Assembly: GCA_964035545.1 (NCBI GenBank)
Contig: OZ037768.1
Coordinates: forward strand, 2,574,741-2,638,740
Direction of reading: 5' to 3'
DNA length: 64,000 nucleotides
Source of the DNA: Bugula neritina
Lineage: Eukaryota; Animalia; Bryozoa
In this document: positions 31,731-62,996 of the stretch, piece by piece
Layout of the letters: each line of letters opens with the position of its first letter
How positions within the stretch are numbered: position 1 is the first letter of the stretch
Translations under genes and position numbers: made by a program
Notes under the pieces: model-generated
Database searches by the model: none
What the model was told of the DNA's origin: nothing
The model's input: only the letters and a program-made list of their open reading frames with translations

Positions 31731-32636
31731 ATGGGAAACTCATGCTGTGCATCACGAAGTAATCGAGTTGCAGATATTGGTATCGTAAATGCTGTTGCCG
31801 TGGGAACAAGCCTTCCTTCTCTTCAAGAATCAGCGCATCAAGTAGACTTCGAGCAGCAATGCTATGATGGCCGCTCTACTTTGCAATTACAGACACCTGT
31901 TCATAAATGTGACTTTGGGCAGCAGTGCTATGAAGGTCAATCTAGGCCAAGTTCAGTGAAACAACCTAAGAGAAATGTTGTACAGGTAGTTAATAATACT
32001 ACAGCAGCTGATGGTTACCCTATCAGCGACATTGAAATGGTGATCATGATGTGCAAAGAGTTGGAAGAAAATCTTTGGCGAAAATACGGGGCGTCTGGTG
32101 ACGGCCTAGGTAATTTGTAAACTATTTATCATATATATTTAAAAAGTTAGAAATGTTTTTGTTAAATTAGGCTTGCATTAGCAAAAAATATTCTGAGAAT
32201 GTTCATAACACATGTACAATTATTGTATTGTTACTCCAGTCGCACATAGTTCTGTGTGCATCTGTTGAAGCAGGCAGTCTTTAACCAGCCATGTAAAGCT
32301 GTTACCTGGTGCAATCAGGGAAGGACAAGTAATATTATTAGAATCTGTAGGGTTCCATTTCCAGATGAACATTAGGATAAGAGCAGAGAGAATGCTCTAT
32401 TGAAGTGCCATGGCTCCTATTTTGTGTTGTTATATTAACATATTTGGCTTTTTTGTTTACTAGGTCAGAAAGTGCATTCTGTGTCAAACGAACTACCATC
32501 TGATGTTTTTCGGGATATTAAATACAATATAGTACGAACAAGGAATCGTTTGGTGCATGACCTTCATGTCAATGGACTAGGAAATCAAAGAAGTGATTTT
32601 ATCAAAACTTTCAACCGAGTGAGATACCAGCTGTAA
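31731..32636 (+). CDS. Unannotated protein 'HEPN-A', 183 aa: N-terminal acylation motif plus C-terminal HEPN (DUF4145-like) putative RNase domain
   Basis: Exons 31731-32109 and 32464-32636, phase-1 GT-AG intron. Starts MGNSCC. C-terminal domain DIEMVIMMCKELEENLWRKYGASGDGLG|QKVHSVSNELPSDVFRDIKYNIVRTRNRLVHDLHVNGLGNQRSDFIKTFNRVRYQL; RNRLVH at 32541-32558. Paralogue on the opposite strand. Confidence 0.8.
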
Positions 32637-34230
32637 CATGTTTTTATAATTTTATTATTACATTTGTCAAGATTTGAAAATCTCAATTTTTAAGACATGC
32701 AAAAAGCAACTAGGAATAGTGCATAGTCAATTAGATAAAAGCATTAATACTTATATTTATAATATTGAAACATGATAATTAGGTTACTGGTTGTATTTAT
32801 TATGCCATAATTCAAATGTTTTTTCCAACATTTGCACTTACCAGAGATGTTATTTTTACATTCTATTATGCCTGTGGTAAATGCAGCTGAAAATCGTCCT
32901 TATTATATTTTTTTACTGTGATTTAAATATACTCTGCTCAAAACTTGTCTCCATTAGAAAGTAGGTATCTTATTTTATTTTACTGCCTGGCAATTTCTAT
33001 TCTTAGTGTTGTGGAACTTGTATTATTTATACACATGTTAGTTCTCAGAACAATTGGGAATTCGCTTGCAATAATACAAACATGAGACTGACTTGCTGCT
33101 AATATTGACCTTTACAAGTAGCTTTCAGCTAATTATTTTAGATACTAAATTGTAAAATCTCTCTTTGTTGTTGACTGTCTCTACTTACTGTTTGTTTATC
33201 GCCTAAAATGGAAACTTTAACATCACAACTTCATGTGTCATTTTTTACCCTGTAAATATGCACTTTTTACTTGCCAACTCTGGTCCTGTTTTTTTTTCAG
33301 ATCCACATGCTATAATTAGATTATAATAAACATTTATAAATTCTGACAGATTTAATTCTACATCACCACATTCCATCTAGCAGCACTGGAGACCAGTAGC
33401 TTGTTATTTGTTTGCGATTCTATAACGTGTATCTCAATGCTGACTCACATAAAATCTGTAATGTTTGCTATTAGCAAGAATGGTTAATGTTTAGCCTCAG
33501 TTGAAAAGTCATGCTGCCTCAACTTTGAAGAAATACTGTATATAGTGAGTAACACGAATACCATACATGTCCATTTCAATATTCACTGTGATCTTTCCAT
33601 ACACTGGAGTCATTACACAGCCTCTTTCAGTGATGAAAGGCAATGTGTGATTTGCTTATCACTAAGTTTAAGCTTGAGATAAGATCAATTTTTGCTCCTC
33701 TAAAACAACCTTGAAAATGTGCTGATACGTATAAGTTACATGAGCAAATGATAAGAACTTGCAATTTATGCAAAGGGAATCCCCTACCTAGGAAATTACA
33801 GGCAGCAGATTTATTTTCAGTCATTCAGCTTGAGTAAATTTGTTTTGTTGTATACAAAGGGAAAGAAGAATGGCTAGTATTTGTGCTGAAATGTTAGGAG
33901 GCAAAAACTAATTGTTGCCAATACATCAATACCTATGATCACTATTATAAGGCAGGTATTGGGCTAGTTAGTTACATAATACATACTCCACAACAGATTG
34001 AAAAGTCATTCACTATTTAGCTTCTACCAGCTGTTAGTATACATGCAATCAAATTATAACATGATGTCATATTCAAGTTTCACTCAATGATATCTGATTC
34101 CATATTATGTAATATTGTTATTGGCTTATTTTTTGAAAAAATTAAGTTTGAGTTTGACATAAATTCTACTAAACAGCACTTCTTTTTATAGTGTCTTTAT
34201 GCCTATCTTGTGTAGATTAGCTTATAATTG

Positions 34231-34290
34231 AAAAATAATTTCCCCCACTGGGAATCGAGCCCGGGTCCTCTGGGTAGACTCAGCACTACA
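34231..34290 (-). repeat. Internally deleted copy of the tRNA-like repeat at 53297-53400
   Basis: Reverse complement reads TGTAGTGCTGAGTCTACCCAG-AGGACCCGGGCTCGATTCCCAGTGGGGGAAATTATTTTT and matches both ends of the 53.3 kb copy. Confidence 0.75.
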
Positions 34291-34331: not shown

Positions 34332-35523
34332 TCAAGCTAAAGCAGGAAACTCTTTCTCGGTGAAAATCGGATGACTTGATTGTAAATTCACTTTACTGTT
34401 GTTCACCCATTGCATAACTTGCTCAAAAGATATCCTGAAAGTTTGTCGTTGCCTTTCATGTAGACTATTGACATCGGAGCCATGCACAAGCAGGTTTCGA
34501 AGCACCACTATGTTCATTATTACGTTGAAAATATATTCTGGAATTCTGTTTGACACAGATTTTAGTTTTTTACCTAAAAATAAGTTTTAAGAATTACTCA
34601 TATAATAAAATCTAGATATCAAATTTCTTAACATATCAAAGTTGTAAGTATTATGTGGAATATGTGCAAACTAATGGATAGTTTGAAAATAGCTAGAATA
34701 AAAGTATTTTACAACTTTAAAGCAAATGAGAATTATTTTGTGGCCATCACTTGTTTAAACTACTCAATAACCACCTAAAACTATCTAATGAAGAGCCCCT
34801 TCTTGAATCATAGCTTGATATGATATGTTGAAAGGTGTAGACAGAATTTTCTTTACCATTCTACTGCCGTGTGATCAGAAATTGATTTATTTCAGTGCCT
34901 ATAATAAAATTAGTAGTAGATATTTTACCTAGACCCTCTCCGTGAGCTTCATAGTTTTCTTTCAGCACAGTTTCCAGCTGCTTAGTCATTTTCACCACCA
35001 TTTCAAAGTCATTGTTGTGGTACTCATCATAAGCTGCCCCTACCAAGAGATGTAGTGGTTTTCTCTGACTCACTTTAGTCTCATATTTGTTAGATCTCAC
35101 AACCTGTGCAAGGGTTGGTTTTATGTATTCAGTTTGTGTATAGGCATCACGTTTTACAGCCCATTGGTGAGATGCGCTAACCCTGACTGCTGCCGGTACT
35201 ACTGCTGCCTGTGGTAAGTGTTCACCAGGTGGCAAGTGTCCACCTGGTTGTACATGTCTACCTGGTGGTACGTGTCCACCTGGTGGTACGTGTCCACCTG
35301 GTGGTAAGTGTCCACCTGGTGGTAAGTGTCCACCTGGTGGTAAGTGTCCACCTGGTGGTACGTGTCCACCTGGTGGTAAGTGTCCACCTGGCCGTACGTG
35401 TCCACCTGGTGGTACGTGTCTACCTGGTAAGTAACTTTGGGCAGATCTAGTTGGCTGCCATTCTTCATCAGATTCCGACAAACCTTCAGTACTGTCGCCA
35501 AGACAACTGCCTGTATTTCCCAT
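34332..35523 (-). CDS. Unannotated protein 'HEPN-B', 278 aa: N-terminal acylation motif, (PGGH[LV]P)x12 repeat, HEPN (DUF4145-like) putative RNase domain and C-terminal EFPALA
   Basis: Exons 35523-34929 and 34573-34332, with a phase-1 intron at the same codon as in HEPN-A. Starts MGNTGSC. Domain DFEMVVKMTKQLETVLKENYEAHGEGLG|KKLKSVSNRIPEYIFNVIMNIVVLRNLLVHGSDVNSL...; RNLLVH at 34499-34482. Confidence 0.8.
35215..35430 (-). repeat. Coding 18-bp minisatellite, 12 units, in HEPN-B
   Basis: Plus-strand unit CCACCTGGTGGTA(A/C)GTGT, encoding PPGGH(L/V) on the minus strand. Confidence 0.95.
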
Positions 35524-36519
35524 GGAAACTCAGGCCGGCCTGAATTCTGCAAGTTTTAAATCATATAATCTACATGCAGTGTTCATTTACAGCTTTTAGA
35601 ATACTTATACCATTTACAGCGTTCATAATTCTTCAGCTTTTATAGTATAGTTACATAATTTGTAAAATTTATTCTACAGCTTGTATAATACATATATTAT
35701 AAAATTAACTGGTGTATTTAATATGATGAATCTACAACGTTATCGCGGAGCAGAAAGTTAAAGTTAAGTTTCAATTCTCTAAAAACCACTAATAAGGAAT
35801 GCGCGAACACTATCATGGAAAGATAAGTATATACATACTGATAAAGCTATCTCTGCGACACCCTTATACCACAATTGTGCCAGGATAGGCTTATCGAGTT
35901 GGCTAGCAACAAGCATCGAGCAATACTTTCTTAATCTTTGAATTTTATTTACTCTTTGTCTTGTCCTCTATATCAAAATATCAAAAAATAACTACATTTT
36001 GCACAAAAATACATACATAACTAAACTTCAAATAACATCAACAAAAACATAAAACTTCAAAATTATAATTCTACTTACTAACATCAGCTCTTTATAGCGC
36101 CTTCCTGGCAAGTAAACTGTTAATAATTCTAATACATTGAAAATAACAAAACCAAAAAGCTAACAAATAGCTAAACAAGCTACAAAAAGCTAACATATTT
36201 TTTATTTAAATTTTGGCAAACAGCCAGGATTTTCTCCCTGGCACAACTATATATAGATGTAAGCAGTTACATGTAGGTTTAGTTATGCAAACACCAATAA
36301 TACAGAGTGTTCGTACCATGCATCATATGATGAGTTCCTCACTAATGATTGGCTATGTTTACTTCATTCTCTCCTGGTCCAAAAGCTTAAGCAGACCTTG
36401 TTCTGCCATGCCATACCACCAGAACTTTTATTTACTTCTTTGATGGTTTCCTTTGGCTCAAGCTACTCAACTCTTTCATCCAGAACTCATCTATACTTTT
36501 CCCTCTATGTTTCTGGTAA

Positions 36520-36863
36520 GCCTAGGGCCACACTGTGCGTATTTTCGCATGCGAAAATTGAAATCGCAAGTAGCAAAGGTGTCCACTGTAGTGTCAGTGA
36601 CGCATGATAAATGAAGCTTTCATTTTTAAATCGCACTGGCTTTCAATAAAACGCAATTCACTGGAATATAGCACTAAAATAAAGAAATTGGGCTCGCTGA
36701 ATAACTACTAGCCAATTAGGTGACGACGACAGAGACGATTCGCACTTGCGTTGAGAATGCTGAGCTACAAGTGCGAATGTTTTCTCAACGAGTACAGTGG
36801 ACACCTTTGCTACTTGTGATTTCAATTTTCGCATGTGAAAATACGCACAGTGTGGCCCTAGGC
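36520..36863. mobile_element. MITE, PIF/Harbinger (Tourist)-like, 344 bp
   Basis: About 71-bp terminal inverted repeats (GCCTAGGGCCACACTGTGCG..., 2 mismatches) flanked by TAA at 36517-36519 and 36864-36866; no coding capacity. Confidence 0.85.
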
Positions 36864-36866
36864 TAA

Positions 36867-36930
36867 GTATTAGTGGCTAGGGCACTGTCTTAGCACACAC
36901 AAGGTCAGCGGTCGAATCCCAGTAAAGACA
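36867..36930 (+). mobile_element. Degenerate tRNA-derived SINE head
   Basis: TAGTGGCTAGGG (A-box-like) and GGTCGAATCCC (B-box-like) at tRNA-like spacing. Confidence 0.45.
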
Positions 36931-37934
36931 ATACTATACCTAGTTGTTAGAGTTATAATTTGACAGCTAGCTCTTTATTGCACTAAATATTACAAGCAAC
37001 AGAACTAAGAACAAAAAACATAAGTAGCACACTTAGTAGATAGCTATAAAATTGCTATTACAGATAAGCAGCTAAGTACAATAGACTAAGAAACAAAAGC
37101 ACATTCAAATAACATCAACTGATTCAATGTGTGGCTATAAACATATTTACTGACAACAGTAGTGATGTTAGGAAAGGCATTGAGTAATAATTCCTCATTT
37201 GCCACAATAGAAAGCAAGTTCTTGGCCATAACTTTAGAAAAAATTGCCATCAGAGGTTCTGGCAATGGTGTTTATTATAAGCCAACAGAAGTTTTCATTC
37301 TTGAAAAGGATAATTTTTTATATGCTACTCAGTAATTATGAATGACTTATGAAATGCAGCAGTTTTCCTGCTGCCTTTATTAGCAAACTTCCATCAGCAG
37401 CAATTTTGCTTTTTTGGAACACTGGCATTGCTTTTTAGATAAGTCATATAGACTTTCTCTCCCTGCTTACCTCCATAGTCTTGACAAATATTGTGTTTTC
37501 AAGCTTCCATAAATGCATTAACTAACCAAAGTATTTAAAAATTCTAAGTTTCATTTGTATTTCTCACAATGCTAGGTTTACTTCATTTCTCAGAAATATT
37601 AATTACTCCAGCTTTTTTTATAATTACAAATAATATATACAATTTACTCAGAATATCTGTAGCCACATATATATTATATATGAAATTACAAAATCATGTA
37701 TGAAATCAAGTAAAATAAACATAAAATTAAATTTAAATTCAAAGGTTTTTTGTTAGCAGTTCTTTACGCCTCGTTTTATAGTTTCTTAACAGTTTTTGAT
37801 CAAATAATAAGTTGTCTAGGACAAAAAACATGATATATAATCATATTACGTAAAAATATCAAAGGTTGTATAATATTGTTATTTCGTGATAAGAGTTTGC
37901 ACCTATATAAAGTTGCAATAAAACTTTAAAATTG

Positions 37935-40171
37935 TCAAATCATCAACTTCTCAACTCCGTAGGCAATGTCCAGAAGTTTTGCTTCCTCAAAATGCTTGCA
38001 TACAATCTGCAAGCCAACCGGTAGAGGTTTGGTACCACCCTGCAGGAGAAAAAAGTTTAAAAACGTTCAAGCTACAATCGGTTTAATAAAATGTGTTTCT
38101 GTGAAGTTTGTTAGTGTGGACAATTAAAAAAGTATTTAACTAGTAAAACACCGACAAATCTCTCAATGCCAATGTTGGGAAAAAATTCGTTGTGTAACAC
38201 GTGATGAGTTGAAAAAAAAATTATATTATATGCTCCATGAAAAAATTCATAGCATCTACACTTTTTATATACTTACTGTACTTACACTTAATACCAATAA
38301 TGTCAGCACAAAACTTACATCATCTGGTTGAACTTTTCCTACATTCAAAGACAGAGCCGGATGTCCTGTGAGATTGAAAGGAGCGGTGTTAATATTCTTA
38401 AACTGGCCCACTTCATCTATAGATTCTGCAAAGGGAGGAATAGTTGAAAGTTGTTAGTTTTTGTTAATATGAAAAAAAATTAACTAATTTCTCATAAGTT
38501 GCTAAGTGACTGTGTAAATTGTGAGAACTTTTTGAGTGTCAAAGCTATGAAAAATATTGTCAATAAAATTAAATGTCATTGATGCTATAGATTTAGCTAT
38601 ATCTACAATTCAATTTTACAAATTTTACTACTCTTACTGCGGGTGTATTTATTAACTGTTGATGTTAGGTTGAGTAAGAATGCAGTTTTACATTAAAATC
38701 TTAGTTAGCTTTTCAACCAGCCAAAAGAGATACAAAAGATATAATGAGAATAAATATAATATGCGTTCAAGTTTACAGTTCCATAGCTCCATAGGCCACG
38801 GTTAAAGCTGAAATTTAACAGTTAAACACAGAACTATAAATATTCGTGCAAAGCAGCCAATATTCTAATGAAAGAAATTAGTCCACTTATTATTGCCTAG
38901 CTTGGTGATGACTGATGAGTCAGACGAGATATAAGAATACTAATCTTCAAGAAGAGCTAATTTCCATGTGTGCAGTTTTATTACATCACTAGATGTTCAC
39001 TATTATTAAATCATTATAGCAACAACTCAGACCTGAGCTAAATGTTGTTATTAGATGCACTCAGTCACCGGACGGGCTACAGCTAGGCCCATTGTTTTAT
39101 GCCTATTCGGTTGAAAATAACTTGGGGTTCTACTGTCACATGGATTCAGCTTGTTTGTTAGTTCAAAATTATTGATAAAATGTTTAACTAGCATAGAACT
39201 TTAGGCTTTTGCAATGCTTTAGTTTTAATGATATTAAACTATTTAGCAATTTATAGTAACAGTTTACCTTTAGGTGTGAGATCCAGGGGTGGTAGTTTTA
39301 CAGCAACAAATGGTATGGTAGGCATAATCAAGGCATCATATTTCTCTAAGACATCATTGTATGCTTTTCTTAGTGTAGGTCTACAGTTCATTGCTCTAGC
39401 AACTATCTGATTTCCTGGAATTTACCAAAAATAAATGGAATATATTTTTGCAAATTCTAGTGAAACCTTTAGATTTTAGAAGGTTTGAAATTAGTATATA
39501 TCATTAGTACCAAAATAATTTAAAACTCAGTTCAATAGCATACAAAAAAGTAATAAAATCACTGTTATGTGTAAATAGATATCAATTTCTACAAACTGCA
39601 AACACAGTATTTTTCAACTCCTCTTTTAGTTGAATGTATTTGAGTTGCCAAAGAGGGTAACTTCTGAATATCATAGTAACCATAGCAACCCTTGATTATA
39701 TGATAGGAACTCATAAACAAGATGTATCAGCTTAAGGAATATTTATAGAGTATAAACATTTGTCAACTGAAAAGGGTAATTTTCTTCAAGAATGGCTGAC
39801 CGCTTTTTAGAAATAATTTTACAAACAAATTTTCATGAGAATTATTATCAAAATCAATAAAATTTTACTTATTTCAAGTTAGATAAATTGGTTTGGAAAT
39901 GTATAATTGTTTGAGATAACTCATTTACAAAATGCTATAAACAAACATAGTATTTTGTTGTATATTTCAAACTAGGAAGTGTTTGCAGTAGTGAGAAGGT
40001 ATATAAAGTTATTATAACTACATTGCATACATACCATCTTTCTTTCTTATATACTCCCCAAACAATGGATAAGTTTTAGCAATGGGTATGAGATCATGAG
40101 TCCTTCCCTGTAACATGTAACATTTTGTTATCACTATATGCTCATTTATTTCATCAATAATTTATTGATGA

Positions 40172-40235
<64 letters not shown>

Positions 40236-43200
40236 CAAATGCTTGGGGCAATAATTTTATTTAGTATTAGGAAGCAAAATACTAGTAGAATTACCTTCAT
40301 AGCTTGTTTAAAGTGGCGTAATGCAGACACGTTGTAGAGCTCATTGAAGCCTGGTGATTGGCTGAAGTTTTCAAACATACAGTCGTAATACGCAGGTATT
40401 AGTGCCGTCATTAAAATATCACCTTCAACATAGTAGATAAACTATAGGCTTTGGACCTTAGACTGTAAACTATATACCGTATAATGTAGACTGTATACTA
40501 TATACTGTATAATGTGTAATGTATACTGTATACTGTATACTGTATAATGTATACTGTAGACTGCATACTGTATACTGTATAATGTATACTATACATATAA
40601 TGTGTAATATATACCGTATACTGTATATTGTGTAATATATACCGTATACTGTATACTATATACTGTATACTGTATAATGTATACTGTATAATGTAGACTG
40701 TATAGCTACTATATTATACTGTAAGCTAAATACTCGATAAGCTTTTTAATATAATCCGCAACTTGCATCTTAGACTCGCGAATAGATGCTAGTGTTTTTT
40801 CACAATAGTGTACTACTCTATAAGCTATAAAATTACATAATGAGTTGAAAATAATTACTTTGTGCATGAAGAGGTATGCTGACTTCTTCTACGACAGCCC
40901 CTGACTCTCTCAGTTTAGTAATCACATGACTCATTACAGACTTCACACCATCAGAAGCTTTTCCAGAACCTTCTTTGACATAACCAAACTTTACTCCAGC
41001 TAAATCACCTGTCAGCTGAATATGTCATGAGTATAATGAATTGATATAACGCAATTACTATTTTAATTACTGATATGAGTTTAAGTCAACTTGAGACCTA
41101 CCAGTTGACTATATTTTGGTATGACTAAGTGAGGATTCTGCCTATGATCTCTACCATCATCATATCCTGCAATGACCTCTAGTAACTTAGCCACATCAGT
41201 GACATTAGAGGCCATTGGGCCCAGGTGGTCAAAAGATGGTTCCATGCCTGTAAGATAATAAGCAGTTCTAATTAAAAAACATACATTGTATGATTATTGG
41301 TTTTATAAATTATAATAATTATAGTAATATTTAAAACTAACTATTGTTATTAGTAGATATTTACACAACTACTGTAAATGCAGATATGGTATTTCTATAT
41401 ATTTAAATTATATAATAAATAACAATTATTATATAATGTAGAGTCCTATACACAAAATGCCATCATTTCTATAAAAAACTGCTTATGAGCCAAAATGCAT
41501 ATACATTTTTTGTTTCAAACACAGTTTAGAATCAATGCAAATTATTTGGTGCAAGCAAGTGATGATAACATTATTTAATATTATATATATAGGCTGATTT
41601 TCTTAGTAATGAGTCATAGTTTAATTATTTATACTTGTCTAAAATATAATTGCAACTTTATATAATATAATGTTGTATAATTTTATCTATTGAAGAATAT
41701 AAGAAACTATTATTTTCATTCTGTGAATGAGATGAAGATAAATAGGCTCATATTTAAGTAATGCAATTGTTATTATTATGTTATTCTACTCTACCTAAAG
41801 ATCCAGTTACAGGAACTAAACCAAATGTAGCCTTAAGTCCTACACAACCAGACCAACAGCATGGCATACGAATAGACCCTCCCTGATCACCTCCAATAGC
41901 CATGTCCACTTCACCGGTTGCTACCTGCAAGGTTTCTAGCAAGGTTTTTGCTATCCTTGAATATGATTTCATGAAATCAAATAATAAAATTGTTTTACAG
42001 TTTCACATATGCTAAGTTGATAAAGTACTAGTTGAAGCAACTTGGAACAACTTTTTTGTGATCTTAAAATAATATTCTGTAAAACCTACCAAAACAGCAC
42101 TCCCAGAGCTGGATCCACCTGCAGACCTGGTGACATCATGAGGGTTGGGTACTGGACCACTCGCACTGGTGAAACTGTTCCCTGAGCAACACTGGTTCTC
42201 ACAAGTTGACTTTCCAACAATGGTCCCACCTATACATGTACCATGAGCGCTATGAGTAATCTCATTTGTGTCTTGCAGTTTGATTCATGCAGCAGCTTTA
42301 AAGTTTGTTGGAATTTATATTGCTTTTTGCAGCTACCACTGTGCATCATTTTAATAAGAATGAGATAATCAAATGCTGCTACTTTTTAAACTCCTAAACT
42401 TATAACCAAAACAATTTCTGTTTAAGGTAAGATAAAGAGTATAAACTATAATAGTAAATTTGTTCTTAGTTGTTATTAATTTCCAGTGATCCATCTGAAA
42501 GCTAAAACATTTTCACTCAATATTATTAGATGCTTTTTTGGTTGTTTCCATTTTTCTATGCATTAATGAAAGTTTTTAAGAGAAAACTTTGTGTTGCCAA
42601 ATTAGTTTGCTTCTATGAATGATGTCTTAACCTGCTTGCAGTATTCTAGTAACGACTGTAGCATCAAACTCTGGGGTGTATCCTTCCCATATTTTAGATC
42701 CATTTGTTAGTGGAGTTCCAGCAATAAACACATTGTCTTTTATTGCTATTGTTTTTCCAGCTAAGATTCCAGCATTTTCTCCTTTGATTTCCATTTTAGT
42801 TGCCCTCAAAAGAGATAATAACTCCACCCAATAATATAGAAAATTGAATGACAGCTATGCATGTTTGAATTTTTGTGACTAATATGTTATAGGTTTTTTT
42901 ACCAGGTATTGTAGGGGTTATCTTTTCTTGCTGGTTTCACTCCTGGAGTTCTTGGATACAAAACTGGAATTGTTTCCTCTTCAATTGACCGTAAACCATC
43001 ACATGTCTTTAGCCAAGTGTTGATAACTTCTGTAAAAATATTTATGGCTAATAAACGTACCTTCTTTTTATGACCTTTAGCTATTAACCATACTTCCCTC
43101 CAACGTCAGCCTGATAAATTTCTAGCCACCATTTATTAAAAAACTCAAACTGCTAACAATAGATGGCTCTATAATTTATTTTCTTAAAATTCATGCAGCT

Positions 43201-43924
43201 AATCTATACACTTGTGTAAACAAGAAGTCCAATAGCTTGAACAAGGTCCTAAGAAATAGTTTAATTATGCAGTGACAAGCAGAATGCTGCATCATTTTTA
43301 CTGGTCCAGATCTAGCACTATAAATCTAGCACTAGACACAAGACTAACAACTAGCTGCAGAATATATAAATATTTAGAATCATGTGACCTACAAAGTTCA
43401 AACGTACTTACTGTTTACAATCAGGAGAGCACAACTGCATATGATATAACCAGAAGTTATTAGCTCATTACTAGAGAGAAATAGAAACTATTTCTAAATT
43501 GAATGAAATGTGAAGCAAAGCTGAGCAATAAGCCATGCAGTTTTATACTCTTTGATAGATCTATTCTAATGTAAAATAAATCTATACAGCAAACCACCAT
43601 TCACCTAAATACTCTTTGATTTGGTCTTCATTGATTCCAAGATTGAGACCTGCTGAAATCTGAGATAAATCTGCAGAAGAAGCTGGTTCAACCAAAGGGA
43701 TATCTGCAACATAACAAAACTGAGGTGTTTTAGTCGAACCATTTGAATAAATAACTAATGTTAACTACCATAGATAGAAGATCTAACATGCAACTACATG
43801 CAATCATTGCAGTACTTTTAGACTAACAAAACCTTAAAACTGTGCAGCTGGTTGTAATCTACTGCATATCATAACACACCAACCTAACACCTGCCTACTT
43901 ACATGATTTCCTCTCATCCTCCAT
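37935..43924 (-). CDS. Amidase signature-family enzyme, CX3C type, paralogue 1, 517 aa
   Basis: 13 exons: 43924-43903, 43703-43605, 43029-42903, 42804-42632, 42229-42090, 41924-41795, 41247-41102, 41015-40859, 40422-40295, 40107-40035, 39414-39268, 38425-38319, 38039-37935. Triad motifs [20 protein letters not shown]; CENQC; [10 protein letters not shown]; LPVGLQIV. Confidence 0.92.
40174..40233. repeat. (TA)n microsatellite
   Basis: About 30 units, intronic. Confidence 0.97.
40459..40722. repeat. 7-bp tandem repeat (TATACTG/TATAATG), intronic
   Basis: About 37 imperfect units in amidase 1 intron 8; absent from the equivalent intron of paralogue 2. Confidence 0.9.
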
Positions 43925-43983
43925 GTGATCCTCCTGTAGTAGTGATTGTAGAACTTGTTACCAGTTCAAGAGACAGAATTATG

Positions 43984-44210
43984 TTTATATAAAAGTCATT
44001 GCTGTTAAAATAAACAAGTGGCCTTGATTTAGCTAGGAGTGGATGCAAAAGGTGATGCCCCTAACAGTAAAAGTTGCTTTATCAGTATAACTAAGTCATG
44101 CAGTTACAAACAACAATAGCACTGGTGTGGTTATCACCATAATTCTAAGGATGTTGCATAGCAAATGCAAAAAGAAAACAAGTCTCGGAACATCATTTCA
44201 GCCAATAGGA
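43984..44210 (-). promoter_or_regulatory. Putative amidase-1 promoter (TATA box plus a single CCAAT box)
   Basis: TATATAAA on the minus strand at 43991-43984 and AGCCAATAG at 44200-44208. The upstream block ...GATTTAGCTAGGAGTGGATGCAA is shared with paralogue 2. Confidence 0.5.
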
Positions 44211-44968
44211 TGAGTTGTAAAATAGACAATACGTCCTACAATTTTCTATTTGATAAGTAAGTTGCTAATCCTATAAGTGCTGGTAATAAGAGTTTTATAA
44301 AAAAAAGAACCCAGCTAGTACTGCTTATTAATGGGAAAGGGTATATTAAATAAGTGTAGAGCTTTTTTCAGCTGTTTTCTAAATCATTTTATTAACAGCT
44401 GACTACTCCGTGAGCTTCCAACTACTCACATGAGGGTTGGAGTTGTTATACCCTAGCCATGTGTGCCCATATCGGCTACTTCAGCTTTTCAGTGTTTGTT
44501 CAAAATTTAGCAACAATTTTGGGCTAAAAGAGTTTCCAGGGAAGGGAGGCTATAAGAAAATTATGCCTAGTCATTGTCAAATGACAACTAAATTTGTGGT
44601 TTCTCTGTATAGTTCTAAAAGCATGAAGTCCTTCTCTGCTTATCTTTATCTACTGGGTAAATACAGCATCTAGGCAGTGAATGTAAACAAAAACTATTAG
44701 CAGGTATTTTGGAGTTGTTCTCTTCTTACAGGTTATGGCTGAGTGTTAAACGCAGACTACAATGCGTTAGAACTGCATCTTATAAAAGCACTATAGCATG
44801 TATTACAGAAATTAAGGGATAAGCCATGACATGGTTGTATGACTAGTTTCATTGTAGGAATATTGAATAATCTGCTCTGTAGCAACATGACCTAATAATA
44901 TGTGTATTCTTACACATGTATAGTGTCTGGCTGACTACATCAGGTGTCTGCATGCAGTTGTTAGCCTG

Positions 44969-45609
44969 CTATCTGTCAGCTATCTGTCAGCTATCTGTCA
45001 ACTATCTATCAGCTAGCTGTCTACTATCTGTCTACTATCTGTCTACTACCTGTATACTATCTGTCTACTATCTGCCAACTATCTGTGTTTACTATCTGTC
45101 AACTATCTGTGTTTACTATCTGTCAGCTATCTGTGTTTACTATCTGTCAGCTATCTGCCAAATATTTGTCTACTATCGGTCAGCTATCTGTCAGCTATCT
45201 GCCAAATATTTGTCTATTATCGGTCAGCTATCTGTCAGCTATCTGTCAGCTATCTGTCAGCTATCTGTCAGCTATCGGTCAGCTATCTGTCAGCTATCTG
45301 TCAGCTATCTGTCAGCTATCTGTCAGCTATCTGTCAGCTATCTGTCAGCTATCTGTCAGCTATCTGTCAGCTATCTGTCTACTATCTGTCAGCTATCTGT
45401 CAGCTATCTGCCAAATATTTGTCTATTATCGGTCAGCTATCTGTCAGCTATCTGTCAGCTATCTGTCAGCTATCGGTCAGCTATCTGTCAGCTATCTGTC
45501 AGCTATCTGTCAGCTATCTGTCAGCTATCTGTCAGCTATCTGTCAGCTATCTGTCAGCTATCTGTCAGCTATCTGTCTACTATCTGTCAGCTATCTGTCA
45601 GCTATCTGT
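44969..45609. repeat. 11-bp satellite (CTATCTGTCAG)n, about 58 units
   Basis: Direct observation; it generates the spurious SAICQLSVSYL ORFs. Confidence 0.97.
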
Positions 45610-45749
45610 TCATTTTCTGTCAGCAGCCCATATAGCCATAAAACTTGTCTAGATGATAGAATACACGTGCAGCTGAGTCTGAGTTGATGTCATATTTATT
45701 ATATCCAGGAGTTAAAGTATACAACATAATAATAGTTTATTTTACTCTT

Positions 45750-48700
45750 TTATTCTGTCATCAACTTCTCAACTCCGTAGGCAATGTCCAGAAGTTTTGC
45801 TTCCTCAAAATGTTTGCATACAATCTGTAAGCCAACTGGTAGAGGTTTGGTACCACCCTAGAAAATTCAGCTAACTGTGTTAATATTCATACACTCAGGT
45901 GAACAGTGCTAAGCACAACAGCATCCAAATATAGACTTTGTAATTCTAATCTATACAGAATTTAAACTAGCTGAAACAATATCTGAATTGTCTAAATTCT
46001 GCCCAATGATTACTGTTTTTCCAATTTATATTAAAATTATTATTAAAATATCTGTAACTAAAAACTGAAACTATGTTAAAGTATCACATTTATACTCATA
46101 GATGTTCTCTATAATGACCATCGACCACAAACCAATCTGTCCATTTATATATTGTGAAGGAATACTTACATCATCTGGTTTAACTTTTCCCACATTCAGA
46201 GACAAGGCAGGATGTCCAGTTAAATTGAAGGGAGTCACGTTGACTACTGGAGACTGCAATGCTCTGATAAACTCTGCAGAGTGTAATAATAATATATCAA
46301 TAGTGTGTCTAATAGGATTCTTATGTTAAGTACAATATGAAAAGCATTTCCTGGTTTGCAGGTCATAAATCAAGTGCCATATACAATATACATATTTAAC
46401 TCTATTATGAAATTGTCAAAAGTTATTGAATTGTTGTATTGTTTCTTGTGAACTATTATATACTGAATCATCAGAATGGTTCAGAAGAGAATAAACAACT
46501 TAAGTTTACTGTTTGTTTAAAATAAAATATTTGGTTAGTATAGCAGGTTTTACTTGTATATAGAGTTGAATACTTTAGAACTAAAGCAAATGAAGTTCAG
46601 AATTTAGGTTAATCAAACAGTTTTCAAAACATAGACGGTGTAAAATCAAAATAACAACATGAGTCAAATTTATTTGAATATAGACAGAATTTCACTCAAA
46701 GTGTGGTTCATATAAAACATCAGCTCCTCATTTTTGTTCAAATTTCCAAGTATTGACAAGATAACGTTCATAGCTACTTCGGTTGTGTTACCAGTCGATA
46801 AACCAATATAACAGTACATCAAGACTACCTATTCGTCATGGAATTCAGGGAGTGAAAGATTACCTTTAGGTGTAAGATCTAGGGGTGGCAGTTTTACAGC
46901 AACAAATGGTATGGTAGGCATAATCAAGGCATCATATTTCTCTAAGACATCATTGTATGCTTTTCTCAGTGTAGGTCTACAGTTCATTGCTCTAGCAACT
47001 ATCTGGCTTCCTTGAATTTACCAAAAATATTCTTTAAAACTAGCACTAGAAGGTTTGAATAAAATAAATTGATCACGTTATAAGAAAAATAACTGTTTGA
47101 TTCAATTGAATAGTCTTTTACTGTTAACAGTTTTGAAATTACCATCTTTTTTTCTGATAAATTCTCCAAACATTGTATAAGCTTTAATCGAAGGTGGCAT
47201 ATCGTGAGCTCTAATCTGTAAAAAACCATGAAACGCATTCCTAAACTAAATACAGGCATTTTTCCAGTTGAATCTGTCTAAAGATTTTATTTATTAACAG
47301 CAGAAGCAATCATAGCCTCACATTCAGTTATTTGGAACAATCTTATTACAAACTTGTAATTTAGTCCTGGCCCTGTTACAGCAGAATCAATAAATATATC
47401 TGAAGACTTCTTTTTGGACACAATTAGTTCTTTTAATTTAGAAGTTGAAAAGTTCAAGGTCAAGATTGGATGAAGTCGCATATTAAAGTCACATTTACAT
47501 GCCATTTGCTTTAATTTCACCTAGATTACTTCTTAAATCTTGAAGTTTATATTACCTGCAAAGCTTGCTTGAAATGACGTAATGCAGACACATTGTACAT
47601 CTCATTAAAACCTGGTGGTTGGCCATAATTCTTAATCATACTTTCATAGATTGCTGCCAGCATTGCCATACTTATAGGTCCCCCTTTCCAATAGTCAAGC
47701 AGCATTAATTCATTAGGCTATTTTTAAGTGTTAATGCATTTCTCAATAATGTGATGAGCATTAACAAATCATTTTTGCTCTTTATTGAGATATGTTTAAG
47801 ATGTTCAAACTTCATATAAAATTGGAAACAAAGTAATAGTCTTGAAAGACTAGGAGTTAAACAGCGACTATTTTAAAACTTATAAGGAAACAAAAAACAA
47901 TCAATAAGTGTCTAATTTTTTTCATACTATAAACTATTAAATTTTAATAGAAGTTACTTTGTGCATGAAGAGGTATGCTGACTTCTTCTACGACAGCCCC
48001 TGACTCTCTCAGTTTAGTAATCACATGACTCATTACAGACTTCACACCATCAGAAGCTCTTCCAGAACCTTCTTTGACATAACCAAACTTTACTCCAGCT
48101 AAATCCCCTGTCAGCTGAAAATATAAAGAGTAATTAATCGATCTAATGTAATCATTATTTAAAGTTTAATTATATGAGTTTTAGTCAACTTGAGACGTAC
48201 CAGCTGACTATATTTTGGTATGACTGCGTGAGGATTCTGCCTATGATCTCTACCATCATCATATCCTGCAATGACCTCTAGTAACTTAGCCACATCAGTG
48301 ACATTAGAGGCCATTGGGCCCAGGTGGTCTAAAGATGGTTCCAAGCCTGAATTAAATAAAGATAAAAACCATTGTATGGTTGGTTATACTAGACTAATCT
48401 TTGAAATTAATTAGTATTAGTTGATAGCTTTACAATTTACTTGGCAAATATATAACGTGGGCATTATTTTATATGTAATACAGATAATAATTATTACCAA
48501 ATTAAGATATTAAGTGTTAGATATATGTAATGTTGAGCTATATGCACATATCTGTTTTATATGAAAAACATGGATTTTTTTAATGAGATTAGCTTTAATG
48601 CAGAGCATTTGGTTTGAGTTGATACTATTTGCAGCCCTAACTGATTGTACCTAAGCTAATTGCCCTAGCTATTATGACTATAAATTCATTCAACCTGACA

Positions 48701-50983
48701 GCTACTCCCTGAAATATAATGGCACAGCAATTACTGGTACATGTTGCTTTTACTGTTACTATTACTTTTTACATTCTGTCTATGGAATAAAGATTTTTAT
48801 TGTTATATTTTCTACTCTACCTAAAGATCCAGTTACAGGAACTAAACCAAATGTAGCCTTAAGTCCTACACAACCAGACCAACAGCTTGGCATACGAATA
48901 GACCCTCCCTGATCTCCTCCAATAGCCATGTCCACTTCACCAGTGGCTACCTGCAAGGTTTCTATATAGCAAGGTTTTGCTATCCTTGAATATGATTTCA
49001 TAAAATCAAATAATAAAATTGTTTTACAGTTTTGCATATACTAAGTTGATAAAGTACTAGTTGAAGCAGATTGAAATAACCAATATGACTTTTTGGTAAA
49101 TAAAGTGTGATCTTGAAGTAACATTCTGTAATACATACTAAAACAGCACTCCCAGAGCTGGATCCACCTGCAGACCTGGTGACATCATGAGGGTTGGGCA
49201 CTGGACCACTCGCACTGGTGAAACTGTTGGTTGAAAAACACTGGTTTTCACATGTTGACTTTCCAAAAATAGTTCCACCTACACCGTACAGTGTAAAGCT
49301 ATGGGAGCTTTGTGTGCTGGCCACAGTATAGCAGGTATGATTTAAATCAAACTACACGAAATTATTCTACCTGAGAGTAATTTAATATCTTTTTGCACGA
49401 TGTGGTAGTAAGTAATAAAATCATGAATAAAGGGTAGTAAAATTAATATGTAAATCTTAAGTTAAGCTGTTCAGTAATAAATTTCACAAAATGGCAACTG
49501 AATTTAATGATCACATGCCAAAATTAAACACGTTGATTTAATTAAAAGGATAAAATGTTTCACTGGAAAGCTTTTCTAATATGAATAATGTCTTAACCTG
49601 CTTGCAGTATTCTAGTGACAACTGTAGCATCAAACTCTGGGGTGTATCCTTCCCATATCTTAGATCCATTTGTTAGTGGAGTTCCAGCAATAAATACATT
49701 GTCTTTTATTGCTATGGTTTTTCCAGCTAAAATTCCAGAACTTTCTCCTTTTATCTCTACTTTAGTTGCCCTAAAAAAAGTTATAACTCCACACAATATT
49801 TATGGCAAATTGAAGGACAGCTACATGTTTAAATTTCTTTGAATAATATGTTATAGGTTTTCTTGTTACCAGGCATTGTATGGGTTGTCTTTTCTTGCTG
49901 GTTTCACTCCTGGAATTCTTGGATACAAAACTGGAATTGTTTCCTCTTCAATTGATCGTAAACCATCACATGTCTTTAGCCAGGTGTTGATAACTTCTAT
50001 AAAAATATTCATGGTTAAGAAAAGCACCAGGGTTTGTATCATCCTCATTTAGTAATCAACTTTCCTCTAACATTACAGCTCTAATGTCAGCATGATAAAC
50101 CCTTAACCAGCTAGTTTTTATTTGCAAATTCAAACTTTAAGCAAAACATGGCTCTATCAGCTAAAATGTAATCTTGGCTTCAATATTAATTTTGCTGTTA
50201 ATTTATTTGAACATGAAGTCTGAGTGTTTGAACAAGCTACTATATTAAATAGCTGCCACTACAGTAAACACAATAAAACTATCTTATATAACACTAGGTC
50301 TGTGACAGAAGACTTGCAAATAGCTGAAAAATATAAAAACATTTATCATCATGTGACCTACAAAGTTCAAACATGGTTATAATTTACGCTCTCAACCATT
50401 GGGCTAGCACAACTTCTAGAGTTATATAGAACTTATTAGCACACTGCTATAGTAAGAAATAGAAATCAAATGTGACTCAAGCACTGAACAACGTGCCAGT
50501 TTACCTATAGGCCTACATACTCTTTGATATATGACTTAAAGTAACAACAACTATACAAATTTGATAGCAAACCACCATTCACCTAAATACTCTTTGATTT
50601 GGTCTTCATTGATTCCAAGATTGAGATCTGCTGAAATCTGAGATAAATCTGCAGAAGAAGCTGGTTCAACCAAAGGGATATCTGCAACATAACAAAACCG
50701 TGGGGTGCTTTGGTATAATCATTTAAATATTTCTACGGACCTTACTAGTGGACAAAATATTAATAACTTTGCCCAATCAGCATCAATATTACAACTTATT
50801 CGTTCAAACCGGTTCAAACCTGTAATTCTTATTTATCCATTCAACTCAAATGTAACTTGGCATGTTTTGCCGGTTTTCCCAATTTTATATGCTAAAACTC
50901 TAACTAGTGATTGTAATCTACTGCATATTATAACACATCCACTTAATACCTCTCTACTTACATGACTTTCTCTCTCCCTCCAT
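45750..50983 (-). CDS. Amidase signature-family enzyme, CX3C type, paralogue 2, 517 aa
   Basis: 13 exons: 50983-50962, 50681-50583, 49996-49870, 49770-49598, 49278-49139, 48950-48821, 48346-48201, 48114-47958, 47683-47556, 47215-47143, 47010-46864, 46273-46170, 45857-45750. Same exon structure and catalytic motifs as paralogue 1. Confidence 0.92.
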
Positions 50984-51022
50984 GTGATCTTTTTGTAGCA
51001 GTGACAGTGAATGTGAAGCTTG

Positions 51023-62064: not shown

Positions 62065-62090
62065 CTGAATACTAGTGTAAGAAGAACAAG

Positions 62091-62996
62091 ATGGCTCCAG
62101 GGGGTGAGGAGGCAACCCCTGGAGCAGCCGCGACACCAACCCTCACTGTGGAGGCTTTGGTGACAGCCCTCCGAAAGTTGCAGGGGACAGGGCAGGCGCC
62201 ACCTGGTGACAGGTACCGCCTCAGTCCCCCAACTTTTGGAGGTGATGGGGATGTGGAGCAATTCATCCGGGAGTTCCAGGACGTGGCCACCATCGCTGAA
62301 TGGCCAGTGCCGGTGCGCGTCCTCCAACTCCGGGCCTGTTTGACAGGCCGGGCCAAGAGTTTCGCTCTGGGGCCCGATGAAGCACACATCTTACGTGCCC
62401 TAAGGGCCAGGTTTGGCATGACGTCAGAGGAGGCGTCTGACCGCCTACAGGCCCTGAGAAGGGACAGGAGGACATCATTGGAGGACCACGCCAACGTGGT
62501 GGAACGCTTGGCCCAGGCTGCTTTCAGCCAGGCTACCGGAACGGAAAGACAGCGCCTGGTGTACAACGCGTTTTTCCGGAGTATAAATCATCCTGACCTC
62601 CAACGCTATTGGATGGCTGGCAAGGTGGGCAGCCTGGACGAAGCTCTGGAAACGGGTAAAGCCTATTTCCAGGTAGAAGAGCTTCAAGGACCAAGATTCG
62701 CCGCCCGCCAGGTGGTCGATGAGGAGACCGCCCTGCCTGCTAAACCCCAAGTAGCGGCCGCAGCAACTAAATCACTCGAGCAGACGCAGCTCACCATGTT
62801 AATGGACATGATGAAAGGCCTGCAGGCTACAGTGACGAAGTTGCAGAGCGAACAGGCGGATAGGCGGGCTCCCCGTTCACGGGACAACCCTGTCCGCCCA
62901 TCTCTACTAACCTGTTGGGGGTGCGGGGTGCAAGGGCATGTGAGGAGGCACTGCCCTAGAGGCCAAGGGCCTTTAAACACCCAAGGCTCACGGTAA
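62091..62996 (+). CDS. gag: Gypsy Gag, 301 aa
   Basis: PTFGGDGDVEQFIREF capsid-like start; CCHC knuckle CWGCGVQGHVRRHC. Confidence 0.93.
   Translation: MAPGGEEATPGAAATPTLTVEALVTALRKLQGTGQAPPGDRYRLSPPTFGGDGDVEQFIREFQDVATIAEWPVPVRVLQLRACLTGRAKSFALGPDEAHILRALRARFGMTSEEASDRLQALRRDRRTSLEDHANVVERLAQAAFSQATGTERQRLVYNAFFRSINHPDLQRYWMAGKVGSLDEALETGKAYFQVEELQGPRFAARQVVDEETALPAKPQVAAAATKSLEQTQLTMLMDMMKGLQATVTKLQSEQADRRAPRSRDNPVRPSLLTCWGCGVQGHVRRHCPRGQGPLNTQGSR

Follow-up and report, generated by a model that had tools for sequence, protein, structure and literature searches.

How did a HEPN domain of bacterial appearance come to be encoded by two intron-bearing genes of a bryozoan? The genes, here called A and B, lie in a 64,000-nucleotide stretch of the Bugula neritina assembly (contig OZ037768.1; hereafter the window), whose DNA is intron-rich, AT-rich and eukaryotic and encodes FYVE, GST, amidase and C2H2 zinc-finger proteins. 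A first-pass annotation, made from the sequence alone, had read the pair as a possible domesticated transfer from a bacterium. Genes that look bacterial but contain an intron are open to misreading, and a transfer may have taken place long before there were animals. The more interesting result is the family to which the genes belong, an apparently undescribed family of lipid-anchored HEPN proteins with A and B as animal members.

Structure of genes A and B and their integration in the host genome

The features of the two genes are as follows (positions in the window).

31731-32636, + strand: gene A, two exons, 183 aa, facing gene B
31731..32109, + strand: gene A exon 1, with an MG start, a Q/S/V-rich linker of ~90 aa and HEPN helix 1 from 32025
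32110..32463, + strand: gene A intron, 354 nt, GT..AG, phase 1, within the Gly codon of GDGL-G
32464..32636, + strand: gene A exon 2, HEPN helices 2-4 and stop codon
32541..32558, + strand: gene A R-x4-H catalytic-type motif, R153-N-x3-H158, as read from the sequence
34332-35523, - strand: gene B, two-exon paralogue, 278 aa, ATG at 35523 and stop at 34332
34929..35523, - strand: gene B exon 1, with an MG start, a myristoylation pattern, C7, a tandem repeat and helix 1 starting NDFE
34574..34928, - strand: gene B intron, 355 nt, GT..AG, phase 1, splitting the Gly codon that is also split in gene A, placed by splice signals and homology
34332..34573, - strand: gene B exon 2, HEPN helices 2-4 and a short tail, no CaaX
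34482-34499, - strand: gene B motif, R224-N-x3-H229

A and B are genuine host genes, each with an intron that interrupts the Gly codon of G-x-G-L-G, and the shared phase-1 position reported in the first-pass annotation is borne out by both gene structures. Since codon and phase are the same in A and B, the intron predates their duplication, as had been proposed. The duplication is old, since the two domains have diverged to 46% identity in protein and 57% in DNA and the introns can no longer be aligned (local score of 17, with a mean of 21 after shuffling). A contig of run X2, which we guess to be RNA, skips exactly the intron of gene A (depth 7.5; short side 22 letters), and the same run likewise skips two introns of a neighbouring gene. 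For gene B no splice joint appeared in the runs examined, and the contigs of X6, X7 and X8 left it uncovered even at 80%, with no contig spanning the site. In a 6012-bp contig from another sample, X6 (~92% alike), the exons of the neighbouring gene are found together with gene A. The splice joint of gene A in a public run and its linkage to host genes in X6 exclude contamination, and the earlier claim to this effect holds, as does that of a host-like base composition: GC3 is 0.34 for gene A and 0.32 for gene B, within the range of 0.21-0.50 spanned by eight host exon stretches. The start of the domain in gene A had been set at 32023, which is out of frame; its first codon, the Ser of SDIE, is at 32025.

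Domain identity

A tblastn match (E 0.08) to a protein encoded on an Alteromonas plasmid led to a family of small bacterial proteins in which a domain of 85 residues is in most cases followed by a transmembrane tail. A profile built from ten bacterial domains only, when applied to the spliced proteins, scored 54.3 bits for A (E 1e-9) and 50.8 bits for B (E 1e-8), the E-values being those for a library of 1.84 billion, and the homology of A and B to the family is beyond chance. Judged from sequence, both genes encode a minimal four-helix DUF4145-like HEPN domain that appears closer to this small bacterial family than to the HEPN domains of Swt1, Las1 or sacsin, a resemblance that the first-pass annotation had already pointed out. 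The R-N-x3-H motif, a form of the R-x4-6-H motif of the HEPN superfamily, is present in 284 of 289 family domains, as RNRLVH in A and RNLLVH in B.

Several family members carry the RefSeq/UniRef label "DUF4145 domain-containing", and the family shares with DUF4145 (PF13643) an all-helical HEPN-like fold and the R-x4-H motif; it differs in scoring under the Pfam cut-off and in having lipid-anchored solo forms, which are not described in the accessible part of PMC3710099. In Table 1 of that survey (Anantharaman et al. 2013), DUF4145 is entered under bacteria, archaea and dsDNA viruses but not under eukaryotes. In a Pfam scan of the single exons of the window genes, exon 2 of gene B reached 18.2 bits against DUF4145 (E 0.0025), below the gathering cut-off of 23.1 bits, and the exons of gene A gave no DUF4145 match. 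When whole homologues were compared at E<=0.1, DUF4145 was matched by two of ten bacterial (best E 0.007) and four of eleven eukaryotic proteins (best E 0.012). The Pfam profiles of Swt1, Las1, sacsin and DZIP3 had no match in the single-exon scan of the window at E<=10, and HEPN_Swt1 matched single homologues only (E 0.05-0.09). Pfam scans of the window's exons likewise gave no match to the families of Ire1/RNase L and C6orf70 (ERMARD).

Fold models of homologues, rather than of the spliced A and B themselves, were compared with 48,161 chains. For both a bacterial member (pLDDT 95.8; Z 9.1, rmsd 2.0, 85 residues aligned) and the eukaryotic-type protein P0070 (pLDDT 85.2; Z 9.8, rmsd 3.5, 106 aligned) the top match was the HEPN protein AF_0298, with many other HEPN chains in the top 20. 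Since Z-scores of 9-10 are moderate and can be attained by chance between helical bundles, the weight falls on the conserved R-N-x3-H motif. The prophage HEPN HepS was also among the fold matches. There was no sequence relative in the PDB, and Foldseek gave no match at E<=0.001 in the PDB or in a viral library. A homodimer model of the Pyramimonas member scored 0.56 against 0.04 for the best control (pLDDT 86; contact agreement between runs of at least 83%), a pass that may stem from its likeness to solved HEPN dimers; for comparison, 21 of 30 solved microbial one-chain pairs and 17 of 29 eukaryotic pairs passed, and none of 23 single chains did. In this model the motif His68 lies in the interface. 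On the basis of these homologues, A and B are predicted to adopt a HEPN fold and to form a homodimer with the motif His at its interface.

Atlas searches gave leads only, with scores under 0.9 for exon 2 of gene A and with DUF6548-type clusters for a bacterial member. A word search for exon 2 of gene A among longer proteins returned three candidates and no match.

A family shared by bacteria and protists

When 1.84 billion proteins were searched with a profile, 1155 matched at E<=0.001, and the best 150 of these were examined (down to 64.5 bits). About 22 of these have a eukaryote-type layout, with a Met-Gly start and/or a CaaX tail, and a second search seeded with such members gave 216 matches, of which the best 120 were examined. 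Most rows are without names; those that are named fall in five eukaryotic lineages and comprise oomycetes (Phytophthora, Bremia, Aphanomyces, Lagenidium), diatoms (Seminavis, Bacillariaceae), green algae (Pyramimonas, Tetraselmis), the alveolate Chromera, the cryptophyte Rhodomonas and the chytrid fungus Globomyces. No named animal appeared among the matches listed (best 150 of 1155; best 120 of 216). The family had been thought small and proteobacterial; it does have bacterial relatives, but also this large eukaryotic branch. A broad distribution among animals and other eukaryotes, which had been put forward as the finding that would speak against transfer, was thus observed in part, with named members in five lineages and none from an animal among the matches listed. 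The best 150 of the 1155 matches included no score expected of a close animal orthologue, the highest being 113 bits for a bacterial-type protein as against 147 for A itself. Since exon 1 of gene A alone scores 46, animal genes that are split by introns and called on raw contigs would score too low to enter the listed range.

The branches differ in their ends. Among 277 stored proteins, drawn from seeded searches so that the counts are not abundances, the PS00008 pattern was matched at Met1 by 88 of 118 CaaX-ending, 2 of 114 transmembrane-tailed and 6 of 45 other proteins. The same pattern is found at Met1 of A and of B, with Cys residues nearby; in gene A, myristoylation of G2 and palmitoylation of C5 and C6 are predicted from the motif. 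Neither ends in CaaX (A ends RYQL and B ends PALA), and the same is true of P0070 and P0277, a marine pair of the myristoylated type with an MG start. P0094 and P0135 are classed as bacterial-type solely by their transmembrane tail. The metagenome matches to P0070/P0277 were both false, being out of frame.

In bacteria the family is patchy, being found in 12 of 300 further genomes from the phylum of the Roseateles genome and in none of 150 from the phylum of the Anatilimnocola genome. Bacterial neighbourhoods consist mostly of housekeeping genes, without an antitoxin, and one locus is close to an integrase. PADLOC gave two single weak CARF-HEPN matches among 22 rows. At one locus (L013:547-7127) a bacterial member has a Csx16/Card1-like gene on one side and Cas10 on the other, within a type III CRISPR locus, a single case, and at another (L017:424-5596) a transmembrane-tailed member lies amid lambda-like prophage tail genes, a typical slot for accessory defence genes. 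A phage collection yielded no credible family member. Viral contigs contained two bacterial-type prophage loci and no eukaryote-type member, and a giant virus as carrier is therefore unsupported.

The literature searched, which excluded most subscription papers, contained no description of a lipid-anchored HEPN branch. The lipid-anchored minimal HEPN family is thus apparently undescribed, although the full additional file of PMC3710099 may list it.

Phylogenetic placement of A and B

Trees were built on 86 alignment columns after near-duplicates (>62% identity), domains of <70 aa and seven long or partial rows had been dropped and the bacterial rows had been randomly thinned to 60. The sister of A+B was the marine myristoylated pair P0070/P0277 in five of seven trees and transmembrane-tailed P0135 or P0094/P0135 in the other two, one with P0070/P0277 left out and one with four columns dropped. 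A+B fell within the eukaryotic clade in three of the seven (in one with 97/94) and outside it in four. The homology search and phylogeny proposed in the first-pass annotation gave a divided answer, with some trees placing A+B by bacterial-type proteins and others nesting them in the eukaryotic branch. When P0094 was added, A+B were sister to P0070/P0277 in 945 of 1000 bootstrap trees; the best topology of the same tree grouped A+B and P0070/P0277 with P0094/P0135 outside the eukaryotic core (99/87), and outside was their position in 1000 of 1000 bootstraps. Without A and B, P0070/P0277 lie inside the eukaryotic clade. The placement of A+B flips on the loss of one to three columns or of two rows.

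Likelihood comparisons and profiles were similarly divided. A position of A+B outside the eukaryotic core was not rejected by the AU test (p 0.36), and in a placement scan the myristoylated and the bacterial-type sister were tied (lnL difference of 0.9); the scan left 36 of the 56 eukaryotic edges and 41 of the 122 bacterial ones unrejected. Constrained LG+G4 runs, each a single search, gave the best value to a bacterial sister (-12073 vs -12085 and -12100). Matched profiles, which correctly classed 57 of 60 eukaryotic and 87 of 96 bacterial held-out members, favoured the bacterial side for gene A in 9 of 12 resamplings (mean -1.6 bits) and the eukaryotic side for gene B in 10 of 12 (mean +3.1 bits). 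The sum of column log-odds leaned to the bacterial side for both A and B, the groups compared being unequal in size. The starts of the domains are also of different types, with the bacterial-type SDIE in gene A and the eukaryote-type NDFE in gene B. Trees on 86 columns cannot settle the origin of A and B.

Among the bacteria in the tree there are also CaaX-ending proteins (P0081, P0084 and P0156), of which P0084 and P0156 come from eukaryote collections; their position may reflect either further independent transfers or misplacement.

Origin of A and B

The tie is broken by architecture only, since the shared myristoylation signal and the absence of a transmembrane tail favour the eukaryotic branch. 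We therefore consider an origin of A and B through the eukaryotic branch of the family to be somewhat more likely than one directly from a bacterium. The genes could have arrived by either of two routes, namely vertical descent with heavy loss or poor annotation elsewhere in animals, or transfer from a protist, and the data fit both alike.

Direct transfer from a bacterium into the animal lineage, as originally proposed, has thereby become the second explanation, and we rate it as unlikely although far from negligible, since the trees are unstable and no close annotated animal orthologue is found among the matches listed. The transmembrane tail would have been lost and a myristoylated extension and the intron gained before the duplication, with the likeness to protist proteins being convergent. 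The two of seven trees with a bacterial-type sister, the tied best position in the placement scan and the SDIE start of gene A are consistent with such a transfer, as is the absence of a close animal orthologue score from the best 150 of 1155 matches, although intron-split animal genes on raw contigs would rank below those 150. A rare H-to-G change, found in only 6 of 94 rows, is common to A, B, P0070, P0277, P0094 and P0135 and would also fit, but the last two are "bacterial" by their transmembrane tail only. The CaaX-ending proteins among bacteria hint at repeated transfers in the family. On the other hand, direct transfer needs an independent gain of the eukaryotic branch's own myristoylation signal, and with all candidates included the sister of A+B is the myristoylated marine pair. 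It is very unlikely that the G-L-G sublineage instead passed from bacteria to eukaryotes in a separate second transfer, apart from the main protist branch, and gave rise to P0070/P0277 as well as A and B. Such an event would agree with the 99/87 support for all six G-L-G rows in the best tree and with the MG start and missing CaaX of P0070/P0277, A and B, but the six-row group dissolves once the single H/G column is dropped, P0070/P0277 return to the eukaryotic core without A and B and score 8-19 bits better on eukaryotic profiles, and long-branch attraction is likely. An origin through the eukaryotic branch thus remains our preferred explanation.

Transfer of HEPN domains into animals has a precedent in solo HEPNs derived from bacteria, namely the Ava_2192/Swt1-like proteins of Daphnia, Naegleria and dictyostelids and paREP1/8 of Caenorhabditis (PMC3710099, section 9), which have duplicated in particular lineages and for which a role in defence has been proposed in the same survey. 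A and B resemble these in being prokaryotic-type solo HEPNs of a eukaryote with lineage-specific duplication. They differ in belonging to another HEPN family, one with a broad protist branch, and in the small size of their expansion, with two copies in the window and a third indicated.

Predicted activity and a possible mechanism

Eukaryotic HEPN RNases are few in number and have been well catalogued (Ire1, RNase L, Las1, Swt1 and DZIP3). HEPN RNases have a composite site at the dimer interface, and RAZR, an anti-phage RNase composed of a zinc finger and a DUF4145 HEPN, needs the R and H of its motif for defence (PMC13017515). A and B have the DUF4145-type HEPN in common with RAZR, whose activity depends on R, H and the geometry of the oligomer (PMC13017515); unlike RAZR they are without a zinc-finger sensor and have a lipid-anchor signal and a low-complexity linker. 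Ire1/RNase L (KEN) and C6orf70 (ERMARD) are likewise eukaryotic HEPNs, acting as dimer-activated RNases and, in the case of Ire1, at membranes (PMC3710099, section 9), whereas kinase, sensor and transmembrane segment are all absent from A and B.

From motif and model it is likely that A and B are active RNases. R-N-x3-H is conserved almost throughout the family and has been kept in both paralogues despite their 46% identity, the motif His falls in the predicted dimer interface of the Pyramimonas homologue, and the defence function of RAZR requires the R and H of its DUF4145 domain (PMC13017515). It is improbable that the domain is instead, whatever its origin, a non-catalytic membrane adaptor or RNA-binding module, for which one could point to its unusual shortness, to the presence of HEPN-like proteins not known as RNases (MtlR, GlnE, Roquin; PMC3710099, Table 1) among the top fold matches, to the mostly housekeeping neighbourhoods without an antitoxin in bacteria, and to the His of GLHEK, which is kept in 84 of 94 rows and is missing from A and B.

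For a catalytic A and B we propose that each is a minimal HEPN, a predicted dimeric RNase, which would be tethered to membranes via N-terminal fatty acids. The lipid anchor would gather monomers on the membrane and so govern the formation of the dimer and with it of the composite active site, such that the RNase would be switched by local clustering at the membrane. The means of anchoring would vary with the branch, with myristate and a CaaX prenyl group in the protists, a C-terminal transmembrane helix in many bacteria, and myristate and palmitate in the animal copies. Some form of membrane anchor is seen in most branches of the family, which suggests that anchoring is part of the function.

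The most likely role, to judge from the analogous RAZR, RNase L and Ire1, would be defence or stress-triggered RNA cleavage; a role in defence specifically is suggested tentatively, and we hold it to be somewhat short of probable. A ~110-residue lipid-anchored HEPN that occurs in at least one animal as well as in a fungus, oomycetes and algae would be a new candidate for an ancient RNA-cutting defence held in common with bacteria. In its boldest form the proposal would be that A and B belong to an overlooked and widespread class of eukaryotic membrane-tethered HEPN RNases, which arose from bacterial transmembrane-anchored HEPNs by exchange of the helix for lipids, occur in animals as two-exon genes missed by annotation, and act as RNase L-like antiviral or cell-suicide nucleases triggered by clustering at the membrane. 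As a whole this is speculative and has a low probability.

Further copies, variation and repeats

A six-frame scan of the 64-kb window found no copy beyond genes A and B. A third B-like exon 2, ~80% identical, is present in contigs of X1 and X3 (aligned to window positions 34372-34587 and 34904-35202), and this indicates a third B-like paralogue, either on a different haplotype or beyond the limits of the window; one X1 contig is suggestive of B-like copies in tandem. At window positions 32070-32078 the allele of gene A encodes N114 and W116. At these residues the other X1 haplotype and also X2, X6 and X7 have I and C, which are nearer to the family consensus; an X1 contig over exon 2 has no difference there.

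The linker of gene B contains an 18-nt tandem repeat of the PPGG(H/R) type (~35220-35420, - strand). It is represented by ~39 letters in an X3 contig and 212 in the window, and the length of the repeat is therefore variable. Gene B is flanked by short high-copy repeats at 34225-34290, 35874-36250 and 36516-36870, with summed contig depths from thousands to >400,000; the ends of the last are inverted, and it may be a MITE. At ~37000-51000 (- strand) there is a tandem pair of multi-exon amidase genes that are nearly identical to each other. A GC-rich open frame at 62076-62996 (- strand), with a CCHC zinc-knuckle-like motif at its end, is presumably the gag of an LTR retrotransposon.
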